The position numbers were made by a program, and so were the translations under genes. Positions 7,319-38,562 of a stretch of 64,000 nucleotides of DNA are shown here, piece by piece (position 1 is the first letter of the stretch; the number at the start of each line of letters is the position of its first letter). Below the pieces are notes generated by a model. It saw only the letters and a list, made by a program, of their open reading frames with translations, was not told the DNA's origin and made no database searches. This DNA is from Escherichia phage OliverMaurmann_Bas86: the sequence record PQ850622.1; one strand, 5' to 3'.

Positions 7319-8350
7319 ATGGCTTATGGAATATGGTGTCAACCTGTAGGACCGGGACCAGCTTCCCCAGCTCCTCTCTTTATTGATAGCGGAAGCACTT
7401 TTCCTCAAATAAAAAATTCAATAAGTGGGAGTTTCAACTTTAACGGGGCTGGTAGATCTTTTCCTATTAGTGGGTGGGATGGGAGTGGTCAAATAGTGAT
7501 TGTACCAACAGGCTCTCTTTGTTGGCAATGGGAGGTTCCTCCTAATTTAGTTCCTGATGTATATTGTGTCAACAATATCTATGTAGAGAATAACACATCA
7601 TTCAGGGTTACATTAAACCAAAACCCGGGAAGCAACCCTTTGTTTGACTGTGGTTTCAATGTATATCAAATCTACCCAAGAGCTGATAGGAACTATGGAA
7701 TAACCTTCTCTAATACAGCTGATTATTTCTCTATCTCAGATGCTGGGATTGTGGGTCAATGCATCTGGGCTTGGCAAGGAACTATAAACAACGCTCTACA
7801 GATACCTGATATTGGTGGTTTCTATATGCCTAATGCTGTAGTTTTTGCTAACTGGTCTGATGGTGGTGTTGGTTTATCTTATACATCAGGAGATAGGGTG
7901 ATTCGAGTTTATCAAAACAGGTCTTATAACAATGGCAACACTAATGAAGGTGGTTCTGTGTTTGCTAGGGTTGCTGTATTTTGTAATGGTGCTGGGGTTC
8001 CTGAACACAACGGCGGTTTAAATATATACTCTCCCGGAACTACTCAGTGCGTATTCTCTACTTATAGGTCTCCTTTTACAGTAGACACTTTCGTAGGCTC
8101 AGCAGGTGGAAATACTGGCTTAGCTTATCCTATGATTCCTCTGTCTTCTGGAGTTGGAGCTATCAGAGGAAGTGGGAGTGGTTGGTATTATCAACAAATG
8201 CGTTCTCATACCATGTCAGGGTCTTCAATAGGAACTGGATATGGTAGATATATGTTCCAATGGTCTAATAGTTATGACTTAGGTTCTAATGCTGCTGTTA
8301 ATATCTCCATCCCTGTAATCAACGCTGCTAAGATTTTTGCAGGTTTATGA
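7319..8350 (+). CDS. virion structural protein (unknown function)
   Basis: 343 aa ORF tightly packed in the structural operon; Gly/Ser/Asn-rich. Confidence 0.4.
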   Translation: MAYGIWCQPVGPGPASPAPLFIDSGSTFPQIKNSISGSFNFNGAGRSFPISGWDGSGQIVIVPTGSLCWQWEVPPNLVPDVYCVNNIYVENNTSFRVTLNQNPGSNPLFDCGFNVYQIYPRADRNYGITFSNTADYFSISDAGIVGQCIWAWQGTINNALQIPDIGGFYMPNAVVFANWSDGGVGLSYTSGDRVIRVYQNRSYNNGNTNEGGSVFARVAVFCNGAGVPEHNGGLNIYSPGTTQCVFSTYRSPFTVDTFVGSAGGNTGLAYPMIPLSSGVGAIRGSGSGWYYQQMRSHTMSGSSIGTGYGRYMFQWSNSYDLGSNAAVNISIPVINAAKIFAGL

Positions 8351-18628: not shown

Positions 18629-19471
18629 TTACCAAGTTTTATCTAACCATGACCAATCAAAGAGGTCACCTTCAGCTTGTCCAACGAAGAGCAATCGAGC
18701 ATTTTCTAACATCTTAGCTTCTGCTTCTTCCTCGAACCTTTTATAGTATTCCATTCGTATAATATGATAAAGAGTCCACTTATCGAATACCTTCTCAATA
18801 AGTTTGATTGCAGCCTTACTACCAATGCCTTTACGACGCATTACTAGATTGCCACCCCACATCATTTCAACCTTCTCACCGCATCCGGGAATGTTATCTG
18901 TGCTATCCCCGATCAGCATCTGGTAGAAGAAGTTCTGCCATGCTACTTCTTCTGATACATAGTGAGGAGGTACTTCTTTCTGTCTCTCCCCGCAAGCCCA
19001 ACGGTAATGCCATCCGGGAGTGATTAACAAGTCTTTATCACGGGTGCAAATGATAGTGTTCTTATCACGTCTCTGTCTTTCAGCTAGGGCATCATCCGCC
19101 TCTCTCCCAAAAACTTCTACGTATTCGTAATTCTCTTTAATGTAATCACTGACATTTTGCCAGTGGTGAGGTCTTTCTCCCGGTGGTCGATTAGCTTTAT
19201 AACCTTGCTGCTTAGCAATATCAAACCGAAAATTACCACCTTCGCTGAAGTAAAAGATTGTTTTCTCACAACCAGACCTTGCAATGATTACATCTATTTT
19301 ATGTTGAAGTCGTTCAATCAAGAATCCATAATCAACTGGAACACGACCTGTGTCTAGAAAAGGATGCTCTTGTGTAAGAGCACCGACTTCATATCGCAGA
19401 ACATCTGCATCCACAATTGCTACTTCAGGATAGATTACATCAGACATAGAGATCTCTCCGTGTCTCTTCAA
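18629..19471 (-). CDS. 5'-3' exonuclease / flap endonuclease (FEN, RNase H-like)
   Basis: GDSTDNIPGCGEKV...GIGSKAAIKLI matches the helix-3-turn-helix region of Pol I-type 5' nucleases; true start may be ATG at 19447. Confidence 0.65.
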   Translation of the reverse strand: MKRHGEISMSDVIYPEVAIVDADVLRYEVGALTQEHPFLDTGRVPVDYGFLIERLQHKIDVIIARSGCEKTIFYFSEGGNFRFDIAKQQGYKANRPPGERPHHWQNVSDYIKENYEYVEVFGREADDALAERQRRDKNTIICTRDKDLLITPGWHYRWACGERQKEVPPHYVSEEVAWQNFFYQMLIGDSTDNIPGCGEKVEMMWGGNLVMRRKGIGSKAAIKLIEKVFDKWTLYHIIRMEYYKRFEEEAEAKMLENARLLFVGQAEGDLFDWSWLDKTW

Positions 19472-25723: not shown

Positions 25724-27571
25724 TTAGTGAGTGTGATTCCAGTTTAACCCAATCTTACAATCAGATGCAAGAGGACATTCCATTTTGAGGTATTCACCTG
25801 CTTTACGAACACACTCTTCAGTGAGGGTACGAAGTTTGTTAACATCGTCACGATGTACAGTGAACTGGCCTTCATCATGCATGTCAATAACCTTCGCACA
25901 ACGAACACCATCACGCTCAATCCATTTATTAAGGAATAGCATTGCATACTTCATAACAATCGCCCCAGCGCTCTGTAAGAGAGTGTTTAAGGCTTTATGA
26001 ACCATAACCTTTCCAGTTGCATCTCTTCTCATTGTAATACGACGTCCATCCACACCGTAGATGTATCCACTTTGTGCTTTCTCTGTCATACGTTCAATAA
26101 GAATTGCAATACAAGGATTCTCTGCTAAGAATCTTGCCCTCATGACAGCCCCTTCATCAGAGCCACCACCTACGATGCTTCCTAACTTAGCGTCACCAGC
26201 TCCGTAGTTGAATGCATAGATAAACGTTTTAGCATTATCACGAGTAGGAAGGCCAGCAAGTTTTTGGTTATGTGAGTGAATATCTCCTTCTAAAAGAATA
26301 TCTCTGTACATAACAGCAGAAGCTAGACCGCGTTCAGCTTCTCGTTTCTTAGCTGGGTTGTTTTCCTGCTCTGCTTCAGCGAGCATCTCACGACATTCTT
26401 TGATAAGGTAATGAGCAAGCATCCTCAGCTCAAGACCAGAGCCATCGTAACCTAAGAAGATTTCACGACCAGCAGGTACATAAAATTTATAAGCACCTAT
26501 TGGTTTGTCTTTCTTGCCCGGTTTTCCCATTTCGTAGATAATGTTAGTACCCTTTCGTACGTAACACCCATCAGGGATATGGTTGGTAATGATGAAAGGA
26601 TGGTTATGACTATCGTCTGAGGAATAGTCAGATTGAAAAAGACTGCGGCACTCGTGACCAAACAAACCGCGAGAAGGAATATTAACAACAATGCGATGTT
26701 TAAAACGAAATGTCGGAGTAGCGCAGCTATTAGCTTCGGCGGACAACTTACCATCTTTACGTTCCTTGTCGATAAGCCCGCTAATCAAACCTAGCCTGTG
26801 AGCCGCTACAACGCGTCTCTTAAGCAAACTTCCTACACCCCCTAGCTCACCCCCAAGCCCCTCTTCAAGAGTCTCCTCAAGGTTTGTAGGGGCTGTAGGC
26901 CACTTGTTTGATGTAGCCAAAGCTTTTTTGATTTCATCAAAGGTTACAGGCTTCTTCCTATTAGGGTTGAGACCTAAACCGCTGACATAGGCTTTCATAT
27001 AATTGACAGTGTGATAACGGAAGTGCTTATCCAAAAACCTTCGGATATCAGCATCTATCATCTCTGCTGTCTGTTTCTCTTTAGCGTTACCTCGAATCCA
27101 AGCAGAATACCATGCAGAGTATGTACCATACTTCTTCATAGCTTTACGAATTTCAAAAGTATTCCAAGGTTTCTTAGAATAATTCCACTCTGGAGGTATA
27201 AAACCTTCATCCATCAAGGCTTCTTTGATACGTGCATCTTTTGATGGGTCAAAGTCTACATACTCAACGCAAGTAAACGCCCCACCGATATCTTCTCTTT
27301 TAAGACCAACCCTATCACAATAGAGTTGAGGCCACTTCTGCAAAGCACCGGACTTCTTAAAAGGTTTAGAATAAGTTGAACCATCCACCCGCATTTTGGG
27401 GAGGAGAGGAATCAGTTCTTTATCAATATTGACAATAATCTCTTTGAGAAGATGAACAAACCACCGAGCGTTTCTTCTGTTGAAGTTGACTCCATGCTTC
27501 GCCTGTTTTGAGATTATATCAGCGACTGTCATCTCCGTTATGAAAGGTAACTTATCAGGGTTATCCATCAC
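25724..27571 (-). CDS. DNA polymerase, family A, polymerase domain only
   Basis: Motif A YDGSGLELRMLAH, motif B RDNAKTFIYAFNYGAG, motif C VIDMHDEGQ; no exonuclease motifs in this ORF. Confidence 0.8.
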   Translation of the reverse strand: MMDNPDKLPFITEMTVADIISKQAKHGVNFNRRNARWFVHLLKEIIVNIDKELIPLLPKMRVDGSTYSKPFKKSGALQKWPQLYCDRVGLKREDIGGAFTCVEYVDFDPSKDARIKEALMDEGFIPPEWNYSKKPWNTFEIRKAMKKYGTYSAWYSAWIRGNAKEKQTAEMIDADIRRFLDKHFRYHTVNYMKAYVSGLGLNPNRKKPVTFDEIKKALATSNKWPTAPTNLEETLEEGLGGELGGVGSLLKRRVVAAHRLGLISGLIDKERKDGKLSAEANSCATPTFRFKHRIVVNIPSRGLFGHECRSLFQSDYSSDDSHNHPFIITNHIPDGCYVRKGTNIIYEMGKPGKKDKPIGAYKFYVPAGREIFLGYDGSGLELRMLAHYLIKECREMLAEAEQENNPAKKREAERGLASAVMYRDILLEGDIHSHNQKLAGLPTRDNAKTFIYAFNYGAGDAKLGSIVGGGSDEGAVMRARFLAENPCIAILIERMTEKAQSGYIYGVDGRRITMRRDATGKVMVHKALNTLLQSAGAIVMKYAMLFLNKWIERDGVRCAKVIDMHDEGQFTVHRDDVNKLRTLTEECVRKAGEYLKMECPLASDCKIGLNWNHTH

Positions 27572-27584
27572 CCACTCCTTATAG

Positions 27585-27938
27585 TTATTGGTATATTAAA
27601 TCTGTGAATGCTTGGTTGTCTTCAACAATATCTAAAGCTTCATATGAATCAGCCAATTCATCCACATAAAAGACTGCTGGAACATCTTCTGCTCGCTGTC
27701 TACGAGCTTCTCTCTGTTCATTACTATCCCTCTGAACCTGTGCTAGTTTCATCCCCCACACCTGCTCATACAGCTCTGGATACTTATCGCTAACCACCAC
27801 AAAGTTTCGAGCTGGTTGGTTTCGGTTAATCTTCGCTGTCAATTCGATAAACTGACGAAACTCTTGAATAGAGAGGTTATCATGGATATTGTCCCACTTG
27901 AGAACGCAGTGTCGTTCTAGGCGTTGAGGTACTGGCAT
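27585..27938 (-). CDS. hypothetical protein
   Basis: 117 aa ORF. Confidence 0.3.
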   Translation of the reverse strand: MPVPQRLERHCVLKWDNIHDNLSIQEFRQFIELTAKINRNQPARNFVVVSDKYPELYEQVWGMKLAQVQRDSNEQREARRQRAEDVPAVFYVDELADSYEALDIVEDNQAFTDLIYQ

Positions 27939-27941
27939 AAC

Positions 27942-28211
27942 TTACTCCACTGTCGGGAAAGGTTTCAAATTATTCATAGCTGTACGAACAATAGCACAGA
28001 TTTCAGGGTCACGATAAGAGAGGAATTTTCCATCCTTGCCACGAATCATTACATTAGTTCGCGCTGTTTTGTTAGGTAATAAAGAGATCCCTCCAAGCAG
28101 GTGGTTGGTAGGATGTTGTCCTTGATTAACTTTGTAATCATGAGTGTGAGCCTCACCATTAAAGAGATGATCACGGATTTGAATTAAACTGATTTTCATA
28201 TTATGCACCAA
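27942..28211 (-). CDS. hypothetical protein (tandem paralog)
   Basis: Shares TARTNV..RG..GKF.S.RD...NLKPFP with 28201..28452. Confidence 0.35.
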   Translation of the reverse strand: MVHNMKISLIQIRDHLFNGEAHTHDYKVNQGQHPTNHLLGGISLLPNKTARTNVMIRGKDGKFLSYRDPEICAIVRTAMNNLKPFPTVE

Positions 28212-28452
28212 AGTTAGGGAAAGGTTTCAGGTTTTCAATGGACTTAGCGATACGCTTAGGGACACTCTTATCGCGGAAGGAGATGAATTTGCCATTAGCA
28301 CCACGAAGGGCTACGTTAGTACGAGCTGTTGTTGGATTAAACTGAATCATCTCAACAGAGCCTGTAATGTTTTCTACAGGGAAAGTGTAGCTCTCAGTTG
28401 CATTCATAGAAGGAAGGAAATCAGTTACAGTGATATAAGTTACTTTAGACAT
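28201..28452 (-). CDS. hypothetical protein (tandem paralog)
   Basis: Shares TARTNV..RG..GKF.S.RD...NLKPFP with 27942..28211. Confidence 0.35.
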   Translation of the reverse strand: MSKVTYITVTDFLPSMNATESYTFPVENITGSVEMIQFNPTTARTNVALRGANGKFISFRDKSVPKRIAKSIENLKPFPNFGA

Positions 28453-28474
28453 ATTTATTACCTTAGATTATATA

Positions 28475-28503
28475 AAAGAAAAGGCCACCCGAAATGGGTA
28501 GCC
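28475..28503 (-). terminator. rho-independent terminator (reverse strand)
   Basis: On - strand GGCUACCC-AUUUC-GGGUGGCC followed by UUUUCUUUU. Confidence 0.55.
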
Positions 28504-28519
28504 TTATATTAACTAGAGC

Positions 28520-28798
28520 TTAAAGCTCCTTTGCGACCGCCTGCTGATTTTCCAGCACGATCTCCACTTTTGCCGCCGTTCGAGCGATTTCGAGAGACTG
28601 ATTCAACACGTAAGTTACTTGACGCATTAGAACCTCCCGACTTGATTGATCGTTTATGTCCAACGTCTTTACCTCGGACAGCAGCTTTTCCATCGCGCTT
28701 TTCAACGATGCGACGTGCACGGTGGCGCTGAGCATCTCCGCTCTTGCTACCAACACCTGTCTCCCCACGTTTGATTGCGGTACGTCTTTCTTGCTCAT
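28520..28798 (-). CDS. hypothetical helical protein (alternative overlapping frame 28509..28823 also open)
   Basis: 92 aa helical-looking product; the other frame gives a basic low-complexity product. Confidence 0.3.
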   Translation of the reverse strand: MSKKDVPQSNVGRQVLVARAEMLSATVHVASLKSAMEKLLSEVKTLDINDQSSREVLMRQVTYVLNQSLEIARTAAKVEIVLENQQAVAKEL

Positions 28799-28812
28799 AA
28801 TCTCTTTTCGCC

Positions 28813-29193
28813 TTATCCGTCATTGTTAGTTATCCTCTGATTGAAAGTGTGAATTGCGTGGCAGTTAGCGCAGAGGATTCTGCACTTCTTCATCTCTGCC
28901 TTCACTTGAGAAATTGATCTCGTGTGACCTTGAGATAGCTCAAAGGATTTTTCAGAGGGGTTAATATGGTCAAACTGGAGAGCAGAAGCGTGTTCTTTAT
29001 AGCCACACAGAGAGCATCCGTAAAAGGTTTTAACTCTTCTGATGAATACTAATTGTCGATTTCTTCTCTCTTCATTGTAAAGCCTACGCTTCTCCCTATT
29101 AGCTGGGTCCGCGTACCTGCACCTGTCTGAACAGTATTTTTGAAATACAAACCTCTTCTCAAATACTTCTTGACAAGTAGGACAAACATCCAT
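28813..29193 (-). CDS. HNH endonuclease
   Basis: Cys-rich N-terminus, FDHINP...CANCH. Confidence 0.5.
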   Translation of the reverse strand: MDVCPTCQEVFEKRFVFQKYCSDRCRYADPANREKRRLYNEERRNRQLVFIRRVKTFYGCSLCGYKEHASALQFDHINPSEKSFELSQGHTRSISQVKAEMKKCRILCANCHAIHTFNQRITNNDG

Positions 29194-29268
29194 GTTACTA
29201 ACTCCTCCTTAAAATCCTTATAGGTAAGTACATTACATAGCATCAAGCACAGCTATCATATGCTACTT

Positions 29269-30006
29269 TCATGATTTTTCAGATTCCATTGCTTTAACAA
29301 TAGCTTTACAGAAACCTGAACGAACAATATCGTCTGATTCACCATCTACTAGAGCGGCAAATTCAAATAAATTGTGACGGTATATGAAATCAGTAGCCCA
29401 ATCTAGACCACTCTCACCACGCATGTCGTGCTGATTAGTGTCCCCCATACAGAACATCTGAGAGGTTTCACCAAGACGTGTCATGATTGAATATGCTTCA
29501 TCAGGAGTAGTATTCTGGAACTCATCAACAATTACAATAGAATCGTTGAATGAGCGACCACGGAGATATTCCAGAGGTACGAACTCAATGTTACCGTTGC
29601 CAATTTGACACTCATAGAAGCCTTTACCATAACGCTGAGTGATAACATCAACAATAGGCATTAAGTATGGTTCAAACTTCTCACGAAGCCCACCGGGAAG
29701 TAATCCAAGACTGTTACCCATACCAACAGCAGGTCGGCTTAGGATAATCTTCTCAATCTTCCCACTTTTCAGAGCATCAATAACAGTTGTTGTGATAACA
29801 TAAGTCTTACCACAGCCAGCAGGAGCATCTGTGAATACAACCTGTTTGGTTTTAATTGCATCAAGCAGCTCACTCTGGAATTGGTTCTGAGGTACTACCG
29901 GCTTAGCAAGAACTACTTCTTCAAATTCCCGCTTTCCTTTCTTGGTGACGAGAGCTTCACGACGTAATTCTCTCCGTGATGCTTTCCGAGATTCTCTACG
30001 ACTCAT
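29269..30006 (-). CDS. phoH: PhoH-like ATPase
   Basis: Walker A DAPAGCGKTY, ILSRPAVGMGNSLGLLPG, IVIVDEFQN. Confidence 0.75.
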   Translation of the reverse strand: MSRRESRKASRRELRREALVTKKGKREFEEVVLAKPVVPQNQFQSELLDAIKTKQVVFTDAPAGCGKTYVITTTVIDALKSGKIEKIILSRPAVGMGNSLGLLPGGLREKFEPYLMPIVDVITQRYGKGFYECQIGNGNIEFVPLEYLRGRSFNDSIVIVDEFQNTTPDEAYSIMTRLGETSQMFCMGDTNQHDMRGESGLDWATDFIYRHNLFEFAALVDGESDDIVRSGFCKAIVKAMESEKS

Positions 30007-30184
30007 TTCCTACCTCCGTGTTCTTCATATAAGAAGCTACAGGATTTACACTCTGAGCAATGGATACCTATAACCTTAATTTCGACAAACTTCTTATTCT
30101 TCCCTTTAGTCGGGGAGCCTTTGGCAAGCTCCCGTATTACTTTCGAGTCCAAATGGAGAAGAGTTGATTCACATTTAAAACATT

Positions 30185-30505
30185 TCAGATTGATTTGTCC
30201 TTATGTAAACGGTATACTTCAGTAGTCATACAAGCTATACGCTCGTCATGTGGGAGATGCATACCAGTAGAGCCGTTCCATCCTTCGAACTCTGAATCAA
30301 AGAATCCAATAGGCTCGGGATACATCTCTTGCAAGGTGGTTAAGTCATCAGCCACTTGTTGCCACTTATCGTCAGACCAGATTGGGTCATCCAACCAATA
30401 ATACAAATAGGAGTGGATAAGCATCTGTGTTCTGTGTCGTTTAATCACTTCAGCAGGACTGATTTCATTTCCGTTACCAGTCCTAAATGTACTATCGTTG
30501 ATCAT
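30185..30505 (-). CDS. hypothetical protein with NAD-ligase domain-Ia-like motif
   Basis: HSYLYYWLDDPIWSDDKWQQVADDLTTLQEMYPE resembles the N-terminal NMN-binding helix region of NAD-dependent ligases; too short to be a ligase. Confidence 0.3.
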   Translation of the reverse strand: MINDSTFRTGNGNEISPAEVIKRHRTQMLIHSYLYYWLDDPIWSDDKWQQVADDLTTLQEMYPEPIGFFDSEFEGWNGSTGMHLPHDERIACMTTEVYRLHKDKSI

Positions 30506-30691
30506 TTAGATAACCTTGTGCTCGTAGATGCTGGGGTTGAAATAATGCAACCAGTTTATATATTGTTTCTGTTCAAGGTAGTGTCTGCAATCATGACAAA
30601 AAGCATGACCCAAACCTGTTTCCTCGTTCAGCTTGAAGTTGATAAGAAGCTTCTGCTTTTGACAGAAGCTACATGTTTTGTATAAGTCCAC
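30506..30691 (-). CDS. small Cys-rich (zinc-ribbon-like) protein
   Basis: CSFC...CHDC pairs. Confidence 0.3.
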   Translation of the reverse strand: MDLYKTCSFCQKQKLLINFKLNEETGLGHAFCHDCRHYLEQKQYINWLHYFNPSIYEHKVI

Positions 30692-30836
30692 AGTTTTACC
30701 TATTCATCTGAATTGTGACTACAACAATACTCACAAACTCCGCAGCAAGGACAAATCTCTACTGTAGGGTCGTAAGCATCATCAACTGTCATACCGCACC
30801 GTGTACAGAAAACATCATCATCGTTTTCTTCCAAAA

Positions 30837-31484
30837 TTAACTCTCCAAAGTTTTCTTCAAAGCTGCCCATGAGATTGGATAGAGTTTAGCCATCTCTTCA
30901 TCTAATGACTGAGCAAATAGTCGAACTTCATATTGAGCATGGGATGATAGTCGTTGACGACACAATTCAAACCAGCCATACAAGCTACCAGTCCAGTACC
31001 AAGTAGTTACCATACCTTGAGGTAAAACAAATCTAGCTTGTTCAGGAGCTACGAACTTAATCAATTCGTCATAACTAGCAAGAGATGCCTCGTACGCAGA
31101 GTTAAACAAAGCTAAAGCTTTTGCCTCTTCCTCCCCTTCAAGAAGTATTCCAGAACCAGAATGTAGATCATCTGGACGGGAGAAGATTTCTTTAGGTATG
31201 AAAATATCCACTGCTCCATCTTTATATCTACGACTCATCTCGTTCCAAGAAAAACCAACTTGATGCTTCTGTAACTGTCGTGCAATTGCTATAGGAGCTT
31301 CGCATCTGAAGCTCGCTTGTGGGTGACGAAAAGGACTTACGTGTCGTTCCCGAGCTAGAAAATTTATTAGACGAGTGTCACTTTCTTTTAATTCTTCCCT
31401 TTCTACCCCCATAGTTACACGAGCAGCATTGACTACTGTAAGATCTGAACCGAAGTTATCAATTAATGAAGCTTTGATTGTCAT
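30837..31484 (-). CDS. thyX: flavin-dependent thymidylate synthase (ThyX-like)
   Basis: RHPQASFRCEAPIAIARQLQKHQVGFSWNEMSRRY matches the ThyX RHR...S...SxRY signature. Confidence 0.7.
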   Translation of the reverse strand: MTIKASLIDNFGSDLTVVNAARVTMGVEREELKESDTRLINFLARERHVSPFRHPQASFRCEAPIAIARQLQKHQVGFSWNEMSRRYKDGAVDIFIPKEIFSRPDDLHSGSGILLEGEEEAKALALFNSAYEASLASYDELIKFVAPEQARFVLPQGMVTTWYWTGSLYGWFELCRQRLSSHAQYEVRLFAQSLDEEMAKLYPISWAALKKTLES

Positions 31485-31950
31485 TTATGTAAGTCTCCTT
31501 GACTTTATTATATTCCCTAGAGGCTTCTTCTATGGTTGAGAAGAGTCCTATGTGCTTAGATTTAAATACCGCCCGGTAAGCAATAGAGCCACTTTTCCTT
31601 CTATGGACAGTCACTCCAATCACTCCGGTTGATAAATTATTACTCTGAGCTACTTTGTTTAGGCCATTTCCTGATCTAGTAGTCCCCCTAAGATTCTCTC
31701 TTTTGTTGTTTATCCTGTTGCGGTCTATGTGATCTACTTCTTCAGGAAGCAATCCAGTGTCCCACCAGTAAGCAAGTCGATGAGCGTAGTATCTAGCACC
31801 TTTATAAACGATTCTCAAATACCCATTGGTATTTACAGAACCAGCTATAGACCCTTTGTGTCCTTTTCCATAAGTTTTAACCCATCGGAAATCTCCAGTC
31901 AAAGGGTCGTAATCAAGAGCTTCTTTTATTGACGGGTCAATATCATTCAT
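31459..31950 (-). CDS. HNH homing endonuclease with AP2-type domain
   Basis: YAHRLAYWWDTGLLPEEVDHIDRNRINNKRENLR plus VIGVTVHRRKSGSIAYRAVFKSKHIGLFSTIEEASREY. Confidence 0.6.
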   Translation of the reverse strand: MNDIDPSIKEALDYDPLTGDFRWVKTYGKGHKGSIAGSVNTNGYLRIVYKGARYYAHRLAYWWDTGLLPEEVDHIDRNRINNKRENLRGTTRSGNGLNKVAQSNNLSTGVIGVTVHRRKSGSIAYRAVFKSKHIGLFSTIEEASREYNKVKETYINDNQSFIN

Positions 31951-31965
31951 CCGTGAATACCCTTA

Positions 31966-32295
31966 TTATTTATTGCCTAGAGCTGTATCCAAAAATGCTT
32001 TCAGGTTTGCTTCAGTCTGCATACCGGAGAGGCTGTAGTGTGCACCACTGTTACGGTCAGGCACAACGAAAGCAGGGATACTTCGTACACCATACTTAAC
32101 AGCTTGTTCACGACCATCACCTTCAAGGATGTTAATCTCTTCCACTTCTACATCAAACTCCTTAACAACCTTCTCAAAGGTAGGAGCCATTGCTTTACAT
32201 GGAGCACATGAATTACTATAAAATTTAATTACTTTACTCATTCTATTCCTTGTTAATAAACAGATTGATATGGCGCTGAGTAGCAGGGACAACAA
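31966..32295 (-). CDS. thioredoxin-like protein
   Basis: KFYSNSCAPCKAMAP CxxC active site; true start probably the internal MSKVIKF. Confidence 0.6.
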   Translation of the reverse strand: MLSLLLSAISICLLTRNRMSKVIKFYSNSCAPCKAMAPTFEKVVKEFDVEVEEINILEGDGREQAVKYGVRSIPAFVVPDRNSGAHYSLSGMQTEANLKAFLDTALGNK

Positions 32296-32431
32296 TAAAA
32301 GATTTATACTGCCCTTTTGCTAAATCATGAGCAATCTTCTTTGTCTGACCAAGACCCATTACACAGCCACTAACAATAATGGCATGTGCTTGTAATTCTT
32401 CAGGGAGGTTTAATTTCACTCTTTGGATTCC

Positions 32432-32617
32432 TTACAGCATAACAAGAACGATAATAAGAGGTAGTGTTATAGCAAAATGTACCAGAACAACACTACCTAG
32501 CTTGATAGCTTTAACATCCTCTTCTGCTGGGTTTTCTTTAATTGCTAAATTTCGAGCTTTATAGATAATAGTACCAACTATTAACGACCACACGGCCCAC
32601 ACAACCAATGAAATCAT
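32432..32617 (-). CDS. small two-TM membrane protein (paralog 1)
   Basis: MISLVVWAVWSLIVGTIIYK...VVLVHFAITLPLIIVLVML. Confidence 0.4.
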   Translation of the reverse strand: MISLVVWAVWSLIVGTIIYKARNLAIKENPAEEDVKAIKLGSVVLVHFAITLPLIIVLVML

Positions 32618-32626
32618 ATCAAACCC

Positions 32627-32806
32627 TTATGCAGTCAGAAGGTGAAGCAGGAATGGGATAACAACAGCTACGACAACCATGATGGTTGATGCTGTTTGAA
32701 TCTCACCTTTCTTGTCAGGGGTTTCTTCAATAAGCTTACCAGAAGCCCAATAGATACCACCGCCAATAAAGATAGCCCAAATACCCCATACGATTGCTGA
32801 TAACAT
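32627..32806 (-). CDS. small two-TM membrane protein (paralog 2, 59 aa, below ORF-track cutoff)
   Basis: Hand-translated MLSAIVWGIWAIFIGGGIYWASGK...MVVVAVVIPFLLHLLTA, clearly related to 32432..32617. Confidence 0.35.
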   Translation of the reverse strand: MLSAIVWGIWAIFIGGGIYWASGKLIEETPDKKGEIQTASTIMVVVAVVIPFLLHLLTA

Positions 32807-32867
32807 ATATCTATATCCTTATAAATGAGTTCGCCCCACCTCGGGTTAGGAGACAGGGCGGAGGTTT

Positions 32868-33443
32868 TTAGTAAGACACATCACCACTTGAGTGGGACAT
32901 GTTGCTCTTGACGAAGTAACAGAACTTGCCAAGACCTTCATTAATTTCTTGAAGCATACTCTGGTCCACTGGATAGGTGCACAAGTCTGAATCAAACTCA
33001 TCCATCTTCTCAATGATACACATAAGAGTCATGCACATGTCGGAAAGCATACCGTCCATGTCGAGATCAGCGTTACCTTCTCGGAACCAAGCATGGCCTA
33101 AATAATTACTAGCAGTAGCATCCACTTTAACACAATGAAAGCGCATACGCTCTGCTATTCGGTCGCCTGCCTCACGAGCATAATCTTCTAGTTCATCGAA
33201 CATACCATGAACACCTTGGAAACCAGCTCCAGAGACGTTCCAGTGGTAGTTCTTTGCTTTGATGTGTAGAAGTTCAAGGTTAGCTTGCACACCACACAAG
33301 ATGTGTTCTAAGCTGTTACCGCTAATCAGTTTATTCATTCCCTCAAGACGAGAGATAGAAGAGTCAGTAGTAGAGAATGGGTTGCTAGAACCCACTCGTG
33401 TTAGTTCTGGTAAGTCGAAGACATTATTATGCATTAGGTGCAT
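32868..33443 (-). CDS. Dps/ferritin-like protein
   Basis: LELLHIKAKNYHWNVSGAGFQGVHGMFDELEDYAREAGDRIAERMR resembles the Dps ferroxidase-site helices. Confidence 0.45.
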   Translation of the reverse strand: MHLMHNNVFDLPELTRVGSSNPFSTTDSSISRLEGMNKLISGNSLEHILCGVQANLELLHIKAKNYHWNVSGAGFQGVHGMFDELEDYAREAGDRIAERMRFHCVKVDATASNYLGHAWFREGNADLDMDGMLSDMCMTLMCIIEKMDEFDSDLCTYPVDQSMLQEINEGLGKFCYFVKSNMSHSSGDVSY

Positions 33444-33774
33444 CCCCTTCTAAGTTAGTTGAATTAGCTACATTACGAGCAATGTTATCCATGACCTGCT
33501 GGGTAATAACAATGCAATTCTGTGGGTCTACAGACTTAGAACGCCCCATTTCAGGGTCATAAACCTTAACACGCTTGGCTGTTGAGCCAGTAACTTGCAA
33601 CACTTTGAGAAGATAACCTTGGTTTCCAATAGACCATGCAACAACATCACGATTCTTGATATAACGACCAAGCATATCACGATGATAGAACTGCTGCATA
33701 ACTTTAGCTTTGCTAATCTCTTCAGATGGCGGGGCCACTTTACTCAAATCTAACATAACTCTCTCCTGTTTCAT
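33427..33774 (-). CDS. hypothetical protein
   Basis: 115 aa ORF. Confidence 0.3.
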   Translation of the reverse strand: MKQERVMLDLSKVAPPSEEISKAKVMQQFYHRDMLGRYIKNRDVVAWSIGNQGYLLKVLQVTGSTAKRVKVYDPEMGRSKSVDPQNCIVITQQVMDNIARNVANSTNLEGDAPNA

Positions 33775-33826
33775 ACAATATTCTTATACTGTATATACAT
33801 TTGAGAGTTATCATATCTACTACCAA

Positions 33827-34033
33827 CTAGTAGTGGACCTTGCTAGTCAAGGACCCAGCACTGTTATTATCATTTTGAAACCAGCGATGAATCTCCACTT
33901 TTTCAGCGAGTCCTAAAGCTTTTGTAGCTTTCTTAGCAAGACGAGCTTCTTGTCGTGTGTCGAATAATTTAAGACAGTCACCACCGAGATCTTTGTTAGC
34001 CCATTTAACACGAACTGCCCATAATTTAACCAT
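33827..34033 (-). CDS. hypothetical protein (tandem paralog)
   Basis: Shares W.VRV.W....TRQEAR and C-terminal KVHY with 34033..34248. Confidence 0.35.
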   Translation of the reverse strand: MVKLWAVRVKWANKDLGGDCLKLFDTRQEARLAKKATKALGLAEKVEIHRWFQNDNNSAGSLTSKVHY

Positions 34034-34248
34034 TAGTAATGTACCTTTCCGCTGATATAGAAACGACCTGATTTAAAGTCCTGAGCTTTGTGGATAGTGA
34101 TCTTGTCAATAGTACTTTCGCAGCTTAATAAGAACTTCTTATGAGCGCGAGCTTCTTGACGAGTGTTTCTGATACCCATTGACTCTGTACCACTGCTCCA
34201 GTGAACGCGGACTACCCAACGTCTTTTCATTGTTCCAAACTCCATCAA
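34033..34248 (-). CDS. hypothetical protein (tandem paralog)
   Basis: Shares W.VRV.W....TRQEAR and C-terminal KVHY with 33827..34033. Confidence 0.35.
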   Translation of the reverse strand: MMEFGTMKRRWVVRVHWSSGTESMGIRNTRQEARAHKKFLLSCESTIDKITIHKAQDFKSGRFYISGKVHY

Positions 34249-34782
34249 TTATACGCCTTTAGAAGCAACAACCCCATCAGAGTTATTGTAACGACCCTTC
34301 ACTGCATAGGAATCATCACCAGCGTGAGAGTGTTCAAACATAACCATTTGACCAACACGCATCCCAGCACGAACTCGTAAGCTGTGATTGTGGGTAACGT
34401 TATGGAACTCAAAGGTTAGCTTACTGCTGTTAAACCCTGCATCAGCCCACCCAGCATGTAAGTGGTTCAAACCACAACGAGCCATTGAGGAGCGAAGTAC
34501 AAACAGACTTGAGATGTTATCTGGAAGGTTAAACTCTTCCATTGAGTGCGCTAAGAAGAATTGTCCCGGAGTGATGACAATACCATCTTCAGGGATTTTC
34601 ACCTCTTTCCACTTGAGGTTTTCTTTAGCATCAATGTCAACAATGCCGTCAGCCTGTTCTTCAACAAGGATAGTATCACCAATACGGATATCCACACTAG
34701 CAGCGTTAACATATTTATGCTCCGCATCTAAAAAGCCATTATCAATAACACTGTGTAATTCTTGAGAACCTAAAAGACTCAT
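34249..34782 (-). CDS. dCTP deaminase / dUTPase-family enzyme
   Basis: ASVDIRIGDTI, LRSSMARCGL, AGWADAGFN, GMRVGQMVMF. Confidence 0.6.
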   Translation of the reverse strand: MSLLGSQELHSVIDNGFLDAEHKYVNAASVDIRIGDTILVEEQADGIVDIDAKENLKWKEVKIPEDGIVITPGQFFLAHSMEEFNLPDNISSLFVLRSSMARCGLNHLHAGWADAGFNSSKLTFEFHNVTHNHSLRVRAGMRVGQMVMFEHSHAGDDSYAVKGRYNNSDGVVASKGV

Positions 34783-36227
34783 GAGTTTCTGTTTCCTTGT
34801 ACAGATGATGCCAAATTGTTAATCATGTTACGAGCTGTTTCACGAGTCAGCGTAACACCTGCTAAGTTACTATCAAGTTCACCAACTAATTCACGAGCTG
34901 TTGCTCGGAGTTCTGCACCAAGTGTAGTGTTAGAATGAGCCAGACCATTACGACGACCGACAGGTCGAGGAGTATTGTTAGCATCATTAGCTAAAGATGC
35001 AAAACCAATACGAGCAGCTTCACGAGCGGCTATAGCTGCTACCCGATCTTCCGTAGGGGTTGGCAAATCACCAACTTCTACACGTTCTATATCACTAGAA
35101 CGTAGACCCTGAACAACAGAGCTAACTGTTTCCCATGAACGACGGGAGCGCTGCAAATCACCCATAGATGGAGAAGAAGCAGGTCGAACAGTTACTCCAC
35201 CTGTATCATGAGTGACGTGCCATGTACGAGTACCCATTCCAGAAGAACGGGCACTACCAAAACTACCAGTGAAAGTATCACGAGGTGCCTCTGTAGCAGG
35301 TGCTGCGAATCTTGTCTGTTGCCAAGAGTCACGTCTGTCAGTTCCCGGAGTCCAAGGCTGCGTAATTGCTTCAGCACCTATAGTGGTTAATCCGCTAGAC
35401 CATTCTGTCTGTAGATTAACTTCCTCGTCCAGATAACTACGACCCCTTTCCTGAGGAATGTTTAATATAGTTTCCATCATCTTCAGGGTATAATGATGAC
35501 GCTGATTCTGATATAAATTTACACCAGCCATAGGTCCAACTAAATCACTAATCAGGTGAACTTCTGGCTCACCGAAAGCTCCCATTGCAAGGTGCATGTA
35601 TTCAGTAGAACTGCTATAAACTGCAACAGTTGCTTCAGGCCACTTCTTGTGAACATACTTCATTTCACGACTAGATACCACAGGAATGTCACGAGTGTAT
35701 GACATTGCAAACAAACCTTCGTTTGACACATACAGATTACCAAGAGTCATAAACCCTTGACAGATCATAGGAAAGCGACGGCTTAAAGTATCCATATCCA
35801 AAGGTAGATTAATCATCATCTGGATTTTAACTTGATCAATCTCAATTTCCAGAATCTCTTGGAAAGTGAAAAGCGCTTCAGCATAGGTTGTCCCGTTAAC
35901 AGGCTGAATTAGTCGAGATGTAACCTGAAGCCCCTTACTTTCTGTCCAAGATAAGAAGTTGTCAAGGAATAGTGCAGCATTACCTACGTTAGCAGGGCTG
36001 TTTTCTTGACGAGTGTTCCAACGAAGCCCTCCTTGAACTAGGAAGATATCAACATCATTCGGAGTTCTATTTTGAAAGAACGTATCACGGATAGCACCAC
36101 CTGCAATAACAGGATAGATGCCATCAGGGACTACGTTATCTCTGATCAAATTACGAATCAGGTCAAGCCCTACACTGAGGGCTTCTCCTTCTTGAAGGTT
36201 CAATTCAGATAGTGGAATCTTAATCAT
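34779..36227 (-). CDS. Pol-beta-superfamily nucleotidyltransferase (CCA-adding-enzyme-like head domain) with low-complexity C-terminal half
   Basis: PVIAGGAIRDTFF...NDVDIFL resembles the GGxVRD...DxD head motif; C-terminal ~200 aa Ser/Thr/Arg/Gly-rich. Confidence 0.4.
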   Translation of the reverse strand: MIKIPLSELNLQEGEALSVGLDLIRNLIRDNVVPDGIYPVIAGGAIRDTFFQNRTPNDVDIFLVQGGLRWNTRQENSPANVGNAALFLDNFLSWTESKGLQVTSRLIQPVNGTTYAEALFTFQEILEIEIDQVKIQMMINLPLDMDTLSRRFPMICQGFMTLGNLYVSNEGLFAMSYTRDIPVVSSREMKYVHKKWPEATVAVYSSSTEYMHLAMGAFGEPEVHLISDLVGPMAGVNLYQNQRHHYTLKMMETILNIPQERGRSYLDEEVNLQTEWSSGLTTIGAEAITQPWTPGTDRRDSWQQTRFAAPATEAPRDTFTGSFGSARSSGMGTRTWHVTHDTGGVTVRPASSPSMGDLQRSRRSWETVSSVVQGLRSSDIERVEVGDLPTPTEDRVAAIAAREAARIGFASLANDANNTPRPVGRRNGLAHSNTTLGAELRATARELVGELDSNLAGVTLTRETARNMINNLASSVQGNRNS

Positions 36228-36229
36228 TT

Positions 36230-36778
36230 CTACATTTTCCAGTTGAGAGATGGGGGATTCTTATAATCAAATCCAGCCATTTGGCAAAGACACATGTAAA
36301 CCTTAACTGTCAAGTTAACGTCTTGTTCACAATACGTGAACATGTCTTCAGTGAAAGCATCCCATGCTTCTTCCTGTTCACCATAGTCACCCTTCAGCTC
36401 TCCCAGAAATTCGCCCCATTGCTTGAGGCCATGACCGCGAGGTCCGTGTCTAGGGTCGCCTTTGGGATATTCTGGACTGTCACCAATACGGTCAGGCTTG
36501 AGGTATCGACTCAGGCACAGGGTATCAAAGACATTAAAACGAAAAGGTATCACATGAGAGTAGAATTTAAACAAAGCAGGAAGGTCAAAATCAATAATAT
36601 TGTGACCTATTACTACATCAGCTTCTTTCAGTTTGTGTAGTGCTTCTTCAATTTGGTGAGGGCGATACCCCCACCGTTCTCCAGACAGTACATCAAATAT
36701 CCATATACACCAGACATTCTGAATACCATCATAGAGGTTATCACCTTCAATATCAAACGCATACAGTTTCTTTACCAC
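36230..36778 (-). CDS. 3'-5' exonuclease (DnaQ-like DEDDy), separate from the polymerase gene
   Basis: Exo I FDIEGDNL, Exo [14 protein letters not shown], Exo III YCEQDV. Confidence 0.65.
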
Positions 36779-38562
36779 GGACGTGCCTCCCCTTCTTGTG
36801 AAAGTAAGGAAGCTGCATCTTCTCCGTTGGTGACTGTAAACGGATTATCTTCATCAACTTCATGATCTTCTCGTTCCACAAGACGACCTGTTTCGTTAAT
36901 GTATTTGGTATAGCAAACCCCTGTCTGTCCATAGTTACGCTCTTTGAGCAGACGTATGATTGACAAGTTTTTACCTAACCCATCCGCTTGTTTATTACGT
37001 TCGAAACCGATAATACATTGACACCAGCGCATTAATGAACGTGAGCCAGTAAACTGTACTTCTTTAACCTGACCACCTTCTTCGTGAGGGGCACCGCCCG
37101 CCGGAGCATTCAAGTGAGATAACACAAAAGCAGTGAAGTCTAATTCCTTACACATACCAGCAAGCTCTGAAGCAATCTTACTGATTTCTGTATTCACTTC
37201 GGATGGAGTTAAGTGAGATACCAATGCAGTGATGTTATCAAGAATGATAAATTTACACTGATTCTCAACTACCCAAAAGCGAATACACTGCTTAATGTCT
37301 TCCCATTCGTTCTGCCCAAAGTTGTCATACAAGAAAAACTTATCAGCGTATCGAAGTGCTTCATCTCGTAGCTGGCTTTCTTCGTACTCAACATCTGGTC
37401 GGTGGAAAGGTACAGATGCTGACTTACCTGCAATGTTCTTAACAGACATGCCTACCTTCTCTTCCAAGAAGAAGCCACCACCATTAAAACCATGCTCAAG
37501 GCAAAGCCATGCTACCAGTTCGTGTGCGATTAAGGTTTTACCTGAACCAACACCACCGCCGATTGCAACCATCTCTCCCCAACGAATACCGAAAGTCATG
37601 TCGTTAAGAGTTTTCCACGGATAAGGGATACCCCACTCCGCTTTCTTCAGAGCATCTTCAAGGCAATCAAAAACTGTAACAGCGCCGGCAGGAGATTCCC
37701 GCTTAGCTGAATATTTCAGATTGTTGAAAAGCTCTTGACCTCTCCCTGCAAGTAACATGTCGTTTGCATCTTTGATTTCCTTTTCTTGTCCGTTATAAGT
37801 GAACGTACCTTTTGGAATTCTTGCAAACTTGACATGTGGGTACAGAGAACGACCTTTAGTCAATGCAATCTCTCCTGCATCATCATTGTCCATGCAGAGT
37901 ACAATCTCCTCGAAACCATTAATAAAATCACGATTTCTTGACAACACAGAAGAGATTGAACCTGCACCGAACGGAAGAGAGACACAAGCAGGTTTGATAT
38001 TAGTTGCGTTTGTGAACGCAGTAAGTACGTGGAATCCAGACATACAAGAGAGTGGGTCTTCGAAGATGAAGAGCTTCTTATTGTAAACATCGCCACGTTG
38101 TGCTTGAGCCATACCAAATAAGTCGGCTTCTTTCACATTACCTACATAATAGAACTTCTTGCTGTCTAGAAGTTTTACTTCATATCCAACAATATTCCCA
38201 TCACGTTCACGAGGGAAGAAGTAGCTGTCAGGAGTTTGACCGTCTGTTTGACTTAAACCAATACGGCATCCATAACGTTCAGATACAGCTTTAGGAATTA
38301 AGCGACGAGTCAATTCTCCCTGAGGAAGCTCTAAGCAATCGTCTAAGACTTCTCGGAGTTCTTCAGGGGACAGCTCTTTCTTTTCATTAGGGGTGGGCGT
38401 CGTTCCTTTCTCGAAGATTTCATACGCACCACATCTGTTACATGAACCCCACTCCTCACCGGACTCTTCATTTCGGAAGAGAATCATGTGATTGCGGGTC
38501 TTATCACGACCATGAGAGATACACTCTTTACAGCCCGTGTCTCCCAAAATGATCTTTGACAT
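36772..38562 (-). CDS. DNA primase-helicase (T7 gp4-like)
   Basis: N-terminal zinc ribbon [10 protein letters not shown]...CNRCG; helicase Walker [10 protein letters not shown]. Confidence 0.8.

Follow-up and report, generated by a model that had tools for sequence, protein, structure and literature searches.

The 64,000-nucleotide (nt) stretch of DNA from Escherichia phage OliverMaurmann_Bas86 analysed here (PQ850622.1; hereafter the window) contains, within a run of minus-strand genes, two distant open reading frames (ORFs) that encode a family A DNA polymerase and a 3'-5' exonuclease as separate proteins. The exonuclease ORF at 36230–36778 and the polymerase ORF at 25724–27571 were both confirmed at these coordinates on the minus strand, and the gap between them (27572–36229, minus strand) measures 8,658 nt. 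The exonuclease gene adjoins a gene for a primase/helicase, and the region 25724–38562 as a whole is the replication module of a phiEco32-like coliphage. An earlier note on this DNA, made from its letters alone, had placed the exonuclease about 8.7 kb upstream of the polymerase and beside the primase-helicase, with two HNH endonuclease genes, ThyX and PhoH in the interval. The measured gap bears out this layout, and so does the sequence GTGGTAA, in which the primase/helicase stop and the exonuclease start overlap; family searches recovered all four of the named spacer genes together with further ones. The E-values for the genes and domains are far beyond chance, and the reading of the locus as a family A polymerase with a distant, separate 3'-5' exonuclease gene is supported by the analysis.

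The best megablast matches of the window are the Escherichia phages vB_EcoP_PAS59 and AnnaHegner_Bas87 (Bas87), at ~96% nucleotide identity, while vB_EcoP_SU7 (SU7; Gordonclarkvirinae) is 90% identical. With 25724–38562 as the query, megablast against GenBank phages returned 98 records, nearly all of them from Escherichia phages, and the DNA identity of the phiEco32 group to this region is 80–96%. By these sequence matches the window can be assigned to a Gordonclarkvirinae coliphage of the phiEco32/Kuravirus-like prolate podophage group, and since the matches are to Gordonclarkvirinae relatives it belongs to a well-sampled group of phages.

The 182-residue product of the smaller ORF is a homologue of the exonuclease domain at the N-terminus of T7 gp5. 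It matches the Pfam family DNA_pol_A_exo1 (PF01612) with an E-value of 3.2e-5 as well as phrog_38876 (E 2.6e-67) and phrog_403 (E 3.1e-37), both of which are named 'DNA polymerase exonuclease subunit'; an NCBIfam search of the protein gave no matches. The residues of Exo I (D9/E11), Exo II (N60/D65) and Exo III (Y149/D153) do not vary among 18 homologues with identities down to 35% and conform to the DEDDy signature (DxE, Nx2-3[FY]D and Yx3D), with Exo III reading YCEQD. DEDDy enzymes have Y-x3-D as their Exo III, whereas RNase T, Orn and epsilon have H-x4-D (DEDDh). The C-terminus carries a conserved FDxxNPP motif that is followed by the stop codon. T7 gp5 (residues 4–142, E 4e-8) was the sole relative that phmmer found among all PDB sequences at E≤1; no other family appeared, and no RNase T, oligoribonuclease or epsilon chain was among the matches. 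The AlphaFold2 (AF2) model of the exonuclease has a predicted local distance difference test (pLDDT) score of 91.9. In a Foldseek search of the PDB with this model, the top 27 matches were all T7 DNA polymerase (E 1e-10 to 7e-8, TM ~0.7), and the first match outside T7 followed at E 4e-5, five orders of magnitude weaker. The protein is 80% identical to the phiEco32 protein whose gene bears the annotation 'DNA polymerase exonuclease subunit', the GenBank records of close relatives label the small gene either 'DNA polymerase' or 'DNA polymerase exonuclease subunit', and tblastn against the phage collection matched DNA polymerase genes in 1,973 records.

The polymerase, which has 615 residues when counted from its GTG start, matches Pfam DNA_pol_A (PF00476) over residues 363–612 (E 2.9e-24; 86 bits against a cut-off of 34.3) and phrog_17 'DNA polymerase' (E 8.8e-83), and its NCBIfam matches are to Pol I only and lie far below threshold. 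Motif A (D376–E381; YDGSGLELR), motif B (R444–G457; RDNAKTFIYAFNYG) and motif C (H565-D566-E567) are invariant across 27 homologues, down to 41% identity, and the DxSxxE, RxxxKxxxFxxxYG and HDE signature of family A polymerases is present in full. No exonuclease domain was detected in the polymerase by the Pfam search, and alignment of the exonuclease-family profile to polymerase residues 1–362 with hhalign gave a probability of 0.3%, that is, no cryptic domain. A Shine-Dalgarno sequence, AAGGAG, is separated from the GTG by 3 nt and from the ATG that follows by 6 nt. Because of this spacing and of the Bas87 annotation (614 residues), translation more likely starts at the ATG at 27568, which gives 614 residues, than at the GTG. 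T7 gp5 is again the best sequence match in the PDB (E 3.7e-33), with Klenow well behind (8e-10). With the AF2 model (pLDDT 87.8), the top 27 Foldseek matches in the PDB were all T7 DNA polymerase (E 2.6e-24 to 1.5e-18, TMq 0.46–0.59), and Pol I fragments came next, at ~E 1e-15. Relative to gp5 the polymerase contains three insertions of fairly high pLDDT: residues ~140–250, which are helical and follow the thumb, residues ~328–372, which are beta-rich and lie just before motif A, and residues ~392–421, which are helical and lie just after it.

Joined end to end, the exonuclease and the polymerase are colinear with T7 gp5 in BLASTP and MAFFT alignments. BLASTP aligns exonuclease residues 9–157 to gp5 5–178, polymerase residues 54–135 to gp5 283–362 and polymerase residues 193–615 to gp5 318–704, so that the polymerase spans gp5 283–704. 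On the full-length phrog_17 profile the exonuclease covers positions 670–826 and the polymerase positions 837–1233, two segments that are adjacent and do not overlap. Homology, intact catalytic residues and colinearity with gp5 are direct observations of our analysis, as are the conserved gene order and the age of the split set out below, and the invariance of both sets of catalytic residues over deep divergence would fit purifying selection on both activities. Contigs of 81,643, 88,363, 100,903, 112,127 and 20,510 nt occur in the lists of exonuclease matches and of polymerase matches alike and are probably the same contigs. The two gene products together likely make up a T7 gp5-type family A replicative polymerase. 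The earlier note had described a polymerase with motifs A, B and C and no exonuclease and, encoded apart from it, a DnaQ-like 3'-5' exonuclease with Exo I–III, and had suggested an alignment to gp5 as a check; the motif conservation and the colinearity agree with this description. The note had also raised the possibilities of an RNase T/oligoribonuclease identity for the small protein and of a cryptic exonuclease in the polymerase, neither of which was borne out by the PDB and profile–profile searches described above.

The GTG start of the exonuclease gene overlaps the TAA stop of the primase/helicase gene in the sequence GTGGTAA (36772–36778), with AGGGGAGG located 7 nt upstream. This overlap suggests translational coupling of the two genes, which would lead to co-production of the exonuclease with the replisome. 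The adjacency of the two genes is kept in SU7, in Aeromonas phage APT65, in Pseudomonas phage Lyrsu01 and in ZCPS1, and thus out to Bruynoghevirus.

The separate genes are found well beyond the closest relatives. The exonuclease homologues from a word-indexed search (n=36, down to 32% identity) are all 105–208 residues long and therefore all stand-alone. None of the best 120 polymerase homologues (identity down to 36%) exceeds 618 residues or has an exonuclease domain; they include LUZ24-like 'DNA polymerase part II' proteins and those of phage tf, Aeromonas phage APT65 and Vibrio phage Vp_R1. A stand-alone exonuclease directly after the primase/helicase, with an exonuclease-less polymerase downstream, was observed in the window, SU7, Bas87, ZCPS1, APT65 and Lyrsu01. 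On one strand, the Bruynoghevirus ZCPS1 encodes the primase/helicase, the exonuclease, 1.4 kb with four small ORFs, the polymerase and a 5'-3' exonuclease. Lyrsu01, which is annotated by similarity to phage Bjorn, has the ZCPS1 gene order with a spacer of 2.1 kb. Its upstream block comprises glutamine amidotransferase, ATP-grasp and gamma-glutamyl cyclotransferase genes, the latter two of which are also annotated upstream of the primase/helicase in SU7 and Bas87. APT65 shares the order as far as the polymerase and has a spacer of 9.6 kb with genes for dCTP deaminase, a DNA-binding protein, anaerobic ribonucleotide reductase and ThyX. A fused form also exists: in a Zobellviridae Vibrio phage a 651-residue protein follows the helicase. 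An exhaustive search with the exonuclease-family profile yielded 4,475 relatives, the best six of them stand-alone and the following ones a mixture of stand-alone and fused proteins. Among the best 150 of the 4,475, 77 have at least 550 residues (with an N-terminal match in the rows inspected) and 45 have at most 250. This stand-alone count is an upper bound, since many of the short sequences break off within the domain, probably because the contig ends there.

The split is old and common to a large phage clade. Since the same gene order is observed in Bruynoghevirus, in a Bjorn-like phage and in Aeromonas phages, we favour its inheritance from a distant ancestor. The exonuclease precedes the polymerase on the same strand, in the N-to-C order of gp5 and, as in T7, directly behind the helicase, so the simplest history would be a single ancient fission of a gp5-like gene at its domain boundary, with the spacer growing later. 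The earlier note had left the origin between an ancestral split and mobile-element invasion; the gene order shared with distant phages favours the former, and the comparison of HNH genes with Bas87 speaks against the latter.

In that comparison, window positions 28824–29267 (444 nt), with the HNH gene at 28813–29193, are missing from Bas87, in which PhoH comes directly after the 104-residue ORF. The HNH gene at 28813–29193 is a recent free-standing homing-endonuclease indel between the 104-residue ORF and PhoH. Because Bas87 lacks this gene and yet is split, and because the short spacers of the distant Bruynoghevirus and Bjorn-like phages contain no annotated HNH gene, we rejected the idea that the HNH genes caused the split. 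An intron or intein that joins the two ORFs was likewise rejected: a scan of the whole window with Rfam at gathering thresholds found only a tRNA and no group I or group II intron, and a Pfam scan of both proteins found no intein/Hint domain.

In relatives, mobile elements do invade the polymerase gene itself, as introns, and the uninterrupted polymerase gene of the window is in this respect unlike those of SU7 and of relatives of the L006 type. The metagenomic relatives L006–L008, which are ~80% identical in DNA to the window across the polymerase gene, carry a 305-nt insert without an ORF between N455 and Y456 in motif B (KTFIYAFN/YGAGD), and gene callers split their polymerase into 454 and 139 residues. 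In L006 this insert spans 7365–7669, corresponds to window position 26204/26205 and matches the Rfam group I intron family RF00028 (102 bits, E 2e-27). The SU7 polymerase is broken just after motif C, into gp51 (570 residues) and gp49 (51 residues), by an insert with the HNH gene gp50. This insert (L001 1657–2239; homologous to about window position 25876/25877) has sub-threshold RF00028 matches of 26 and 14 bits flanking the HNH ORF, and probably represents a group I intron that carries the HNH ORF in a loop. In LUZ24, the group I intron of the polymerase gene splices in vivo (PMC10914365).

The spacer is filled by ~20 independent genes, all on the same strand, which comprise nucleotide-metabolism genes and free-standing HNH endonucleases, and its content varies between close relatives. 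The annotated genes of the replication region are collected in Table 1.

Table 1. Genes of the replication region of the window, in order of transcription
Feature	Coordinates	Strand	Family evidence
Primase/helicase, T7 gp4-like, bifunctional	36772–38562	-	phrog_239 (E 3.9e-175), DnaB_C, Toprim
Stand-alone DEDDy 3'-5' proofreading exonuclease (activity predicted), 182 aa	36230–36778	-	PF01612, phrog_38876, phrog_403
Nucleotidyltransferase	34779–36227	-	phrog_12715 (E 7e-169)
dCTP deaminase	34249–34782	-	family search
Ferritin-like DNA-binding protein	32868–33443	-	family search
Thioredoxin, CAPC motif	31966–32241	-	phrog_22 (E 7e-13)
HNH endonuclease	31459–31950	-	PF13392 (E 2.9e-10), phrog_99 (E 3.6e-44)
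ThyX	30837–31484	-	family search
Ligase-like ORF, 106 aa	30185–30505	-	phrog_6466 'DNA ligase'
PhoH	29269–30006	-	family search
HNH endonuclease, free-standing	28813–29193	-	phrog_2255 (E 1.4e-28)
Exonuclease-less family A DNA polymerase, T7 gp5 type (thumb, palm, fingers)	25724–27571	-	PF00476, phrog_17
5'-3' exonuclease, FEN-type, separate gene	18629–19471	-	phrog_107 'exonuclease' (E 1.1e-61)

The thioredoxin is of interest in connection with the T7-like polymerase, for which it is a candidate processivity factor; its homologue in L006 carries PF00085. Polymerase residues ~54–135 (window ~27167–27412) keep a homologue of gp5 283–362, which is consistent with such a role. In T7, gp5 283–362 spans the C-terminal part of the thioredoxin-binding insert. 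That a phage thioredoxin serves as processivity factor has already been hypothesised in print for phage Privateer (PMC7881722).

Directly after the exonuclease gene lies the nucleotidyltransferase gene, which is conserved in the group. Its 482-residue product has no Pfam or NCBIfam match, and by eye Ser, Thr, Arg and Gly seem abundant in its last ~200 residues. The HNH gene at 31459–31950 is located just upstream of ThyX in transcription order and overlaps the ThyX start; it is present in SU7, Bas87 and L006, with a divergent copy in Bas87. SU7 annotates the counterpart of the ORF at 30185–30505 as 'NAD-dependent DNA ligase'. With 106 residues the protein is far too short for a ligase and is perhaps an N-terminal ligase-like domain only. 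Downstream of the polymerase, the minus-strand segment 18629–20686 encodes the 5'-3' exonuclease, a deoxynucleoside monophosphate kinase (phrog_139) and a phage sigma factor (phrog_1740). By its family match, the 5'-3' exonuclease would represent the third Pol I-type activity, encoded separately as in T7. A characterised sigma factor is encoded by phiEco32. The single tRNA gene, at 52396–52470 on the minus strand, lies in the early region (Rfam RF00005, 67.5 bits).

The split arrangement is already published and annotated for the whole phage group. Separate polymerase and exonuclease genes have been described in the LUZ24 and phiEco32/Kuravirus groups (PMC3517423, 2012; PMC9965538, 2023), for phiEco32 by Savalia et al. 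2008 as cited in PMC3517423, and phage YF01 is reported to have a DNA polymerase with separately encoded 5'-3' and 3'-5' exonuclease subunits (PMC9965538). The window has the same genes in the same order as the phiEco32/Kuravirus group and differs from it at the strain level only, with the extra HNH gene at 28813–29193 relative to Bas87 and without polymerase introns of the SU7 or L006 type. LUZ24-like phages (Bruynoghevirus), in which the genes are called 'DNA polymerase part I' and 'part II', likewise have a separate exonuclease after the primase/helicase and an exonuclease-less polymerase downstream, the latter 40–44% identical to the window polymerase. Their spacers are far shorter, at 1.4 kb in ZCPS1 and 2.1 kb in the Bjorn-like Lyrsu01 against 8.7 kb in the window, and LUZ24 itself differs from the window in that a group I intron, which is spliced, interrupts its polymerase gene. 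T7 gp5 is the best solved relative of both proteins and has the DEDDy and A/B/C motifs in common with them, the segment after the thumb tip (polymerase 54–135, gp5 283–362) is homologous, and in both phages a gp4-like primase/helicase is encoded upstream. In contrast to the two chains of the window, T7 gp5 is a single chain of 704 residues and lacks the extra insertions of the window polymerase; moreover, the phage of the window encodes a thioredoxin of its own and does not rely on that of the host only. In the E. coli Pol III core, the alpha polymerase and the epsilon (DnaQ) proofreader are separate polypeptides, of family C and DEDDh type. This likeness is one of analogy only, as the polymerase families are unrelated and epsilon is DEDDh, not DEDDy.

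In the mechanism that we consider most likely, the exonuclease would be produced from the gene whose start overlaps the primase/helicase stop and the polymerase, of 614 or 615 residues, from the gene 8.7 kb further down the strand. The exonuclease would then dock non-covalently on the polymerase at the position of the gp5 exonuclease domain and proofread the primer terminus in trans, and the two together would amount to T7 gp5 in two subunits. The processivity factor may be the phage thioredoxin, and a third gene would provide the 5'-3' exonuclease. The clade would have inherited an old fission, and the spacer would have been enlarged later by nucleotide-metabolism genes and mobile HNH genes. 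We infer the physical association, the proofreading in trans and the part played by thioredoxin. The docking proposal draws on the homology to a single-chain enzyme, the retention of catalytic residues in both proteins and the apparent co-occurrence of the two genes. Several points weigh against this scheme. The coupling of the exonuclease gene is to the primase/helicase gene and not to the polymerase gene, so that its product could just as well travel with the helicase or function by itself. The Pfam match of the exonuclease barely exceeds the cut-off (24.2 versus 23.6 bits), a marginal score that is offset by the strong PHROGs, PDB search and fold evidence. Finally, the polarity of the fission is deduced from colinearity and the dominance of fused forms.

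One alternative is an exonuclease decoupled from the polymerase, one that acts alone or with the primase/helicase, for example to trim primers or flaps, in recombination or to degrade host DNA, and leaves the polymerase without dedicated proofreading. The position of the gene speaks for it: the gene overlaps the primase/helicase stop and always adjoins that gene, never the polymerase gene. Consistent with such a reading, the Privateer paper counts the protein merely among 'two exonucleases' (PMC7881722). We nevertheless regard a decoupled exonuclease as unlikely, because the closest relatives of the protein in sequence and fold are exclusively polymerase-attached proofreading domains of the T7 type and because every long contig with an exonuclease-less polymerase seems to carry the exonuclease as well. 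In T7 the gene order is helicase, then exonuclease-polymerase. Adjacency to the helicase is therefore simply the ancestral order, which counts against decoupling. A related scenario builds on the apparent translational coupling to the primase/helicase across the whole clade and has the exonuclease delivered via the helicase and either shared between the leading- and lagging-strand polymerases or titratable. We consider it improbable; if true, the level of proofreading, and hence the mutation rate, would be set by subunit stoichiometry and not by a fused enzyme.

The two HNH genes in the spacer, together with the group I intron in the polymerase gene of L006 and the HNH-bearing insert in that of SU7, could be taken to mean that the split is recent or only apparent, whether through HNH or other mobile elements, through rejoining by an intron, intein or trans-splicing, or through an assembly or annotation artefact. 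This appears very improbable to us, since the same split is present in ~100 relatives that have been sequenced and also in distant genera without an annotated HNH gene in the spacer, Bas87 is still split without the HNH gene at 28813–29193, and the Rfam and Pfam scans found no intron in the window and no intein/Hint domain. In addition, each ORF has its own Shine-Dalgarno sequence and start codon, the exonuclease stops after its conserved FDxxNPP motif, and no close relative with a fused gene was seen. Hardly any credence is left for an unrelated, RNA-directed RNase of the DnaQ superfamily (RNase T, oligoribonuclease or NrnC type). The DnaQ fold, a sub-threshold Pfam match to RNase_H_2 and weak Foldseek matches to NrnC and diDNase (E ~5e-5 to 2e-4) are compatible with such an identity, but Exo III is Y-x3-D and not H-x4-D, the T7 polymerase matches in Foldseek are five orders of magnitude better, and the tblastn matches are to DNA polymerase genes. 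Together with the PDB search, the Exo III motif and Foldseek effectively refute an RNase T or oligoribonuclease.

With the exonuclease and the polymerase read as the two parts of a gp5-type enzyme, the small ORF beside the primase/helicase, which some records call a 'hypothetical protein' or a generic exonuclease, should be named the proofreading subunit of the polymerase. Beyond correct annotation the significance of the finding is small. However, such phages would offer a convenient natural two-piece T7 gp5 in which to study how the interface between exonuclease and polymerase contributes to fidelity.

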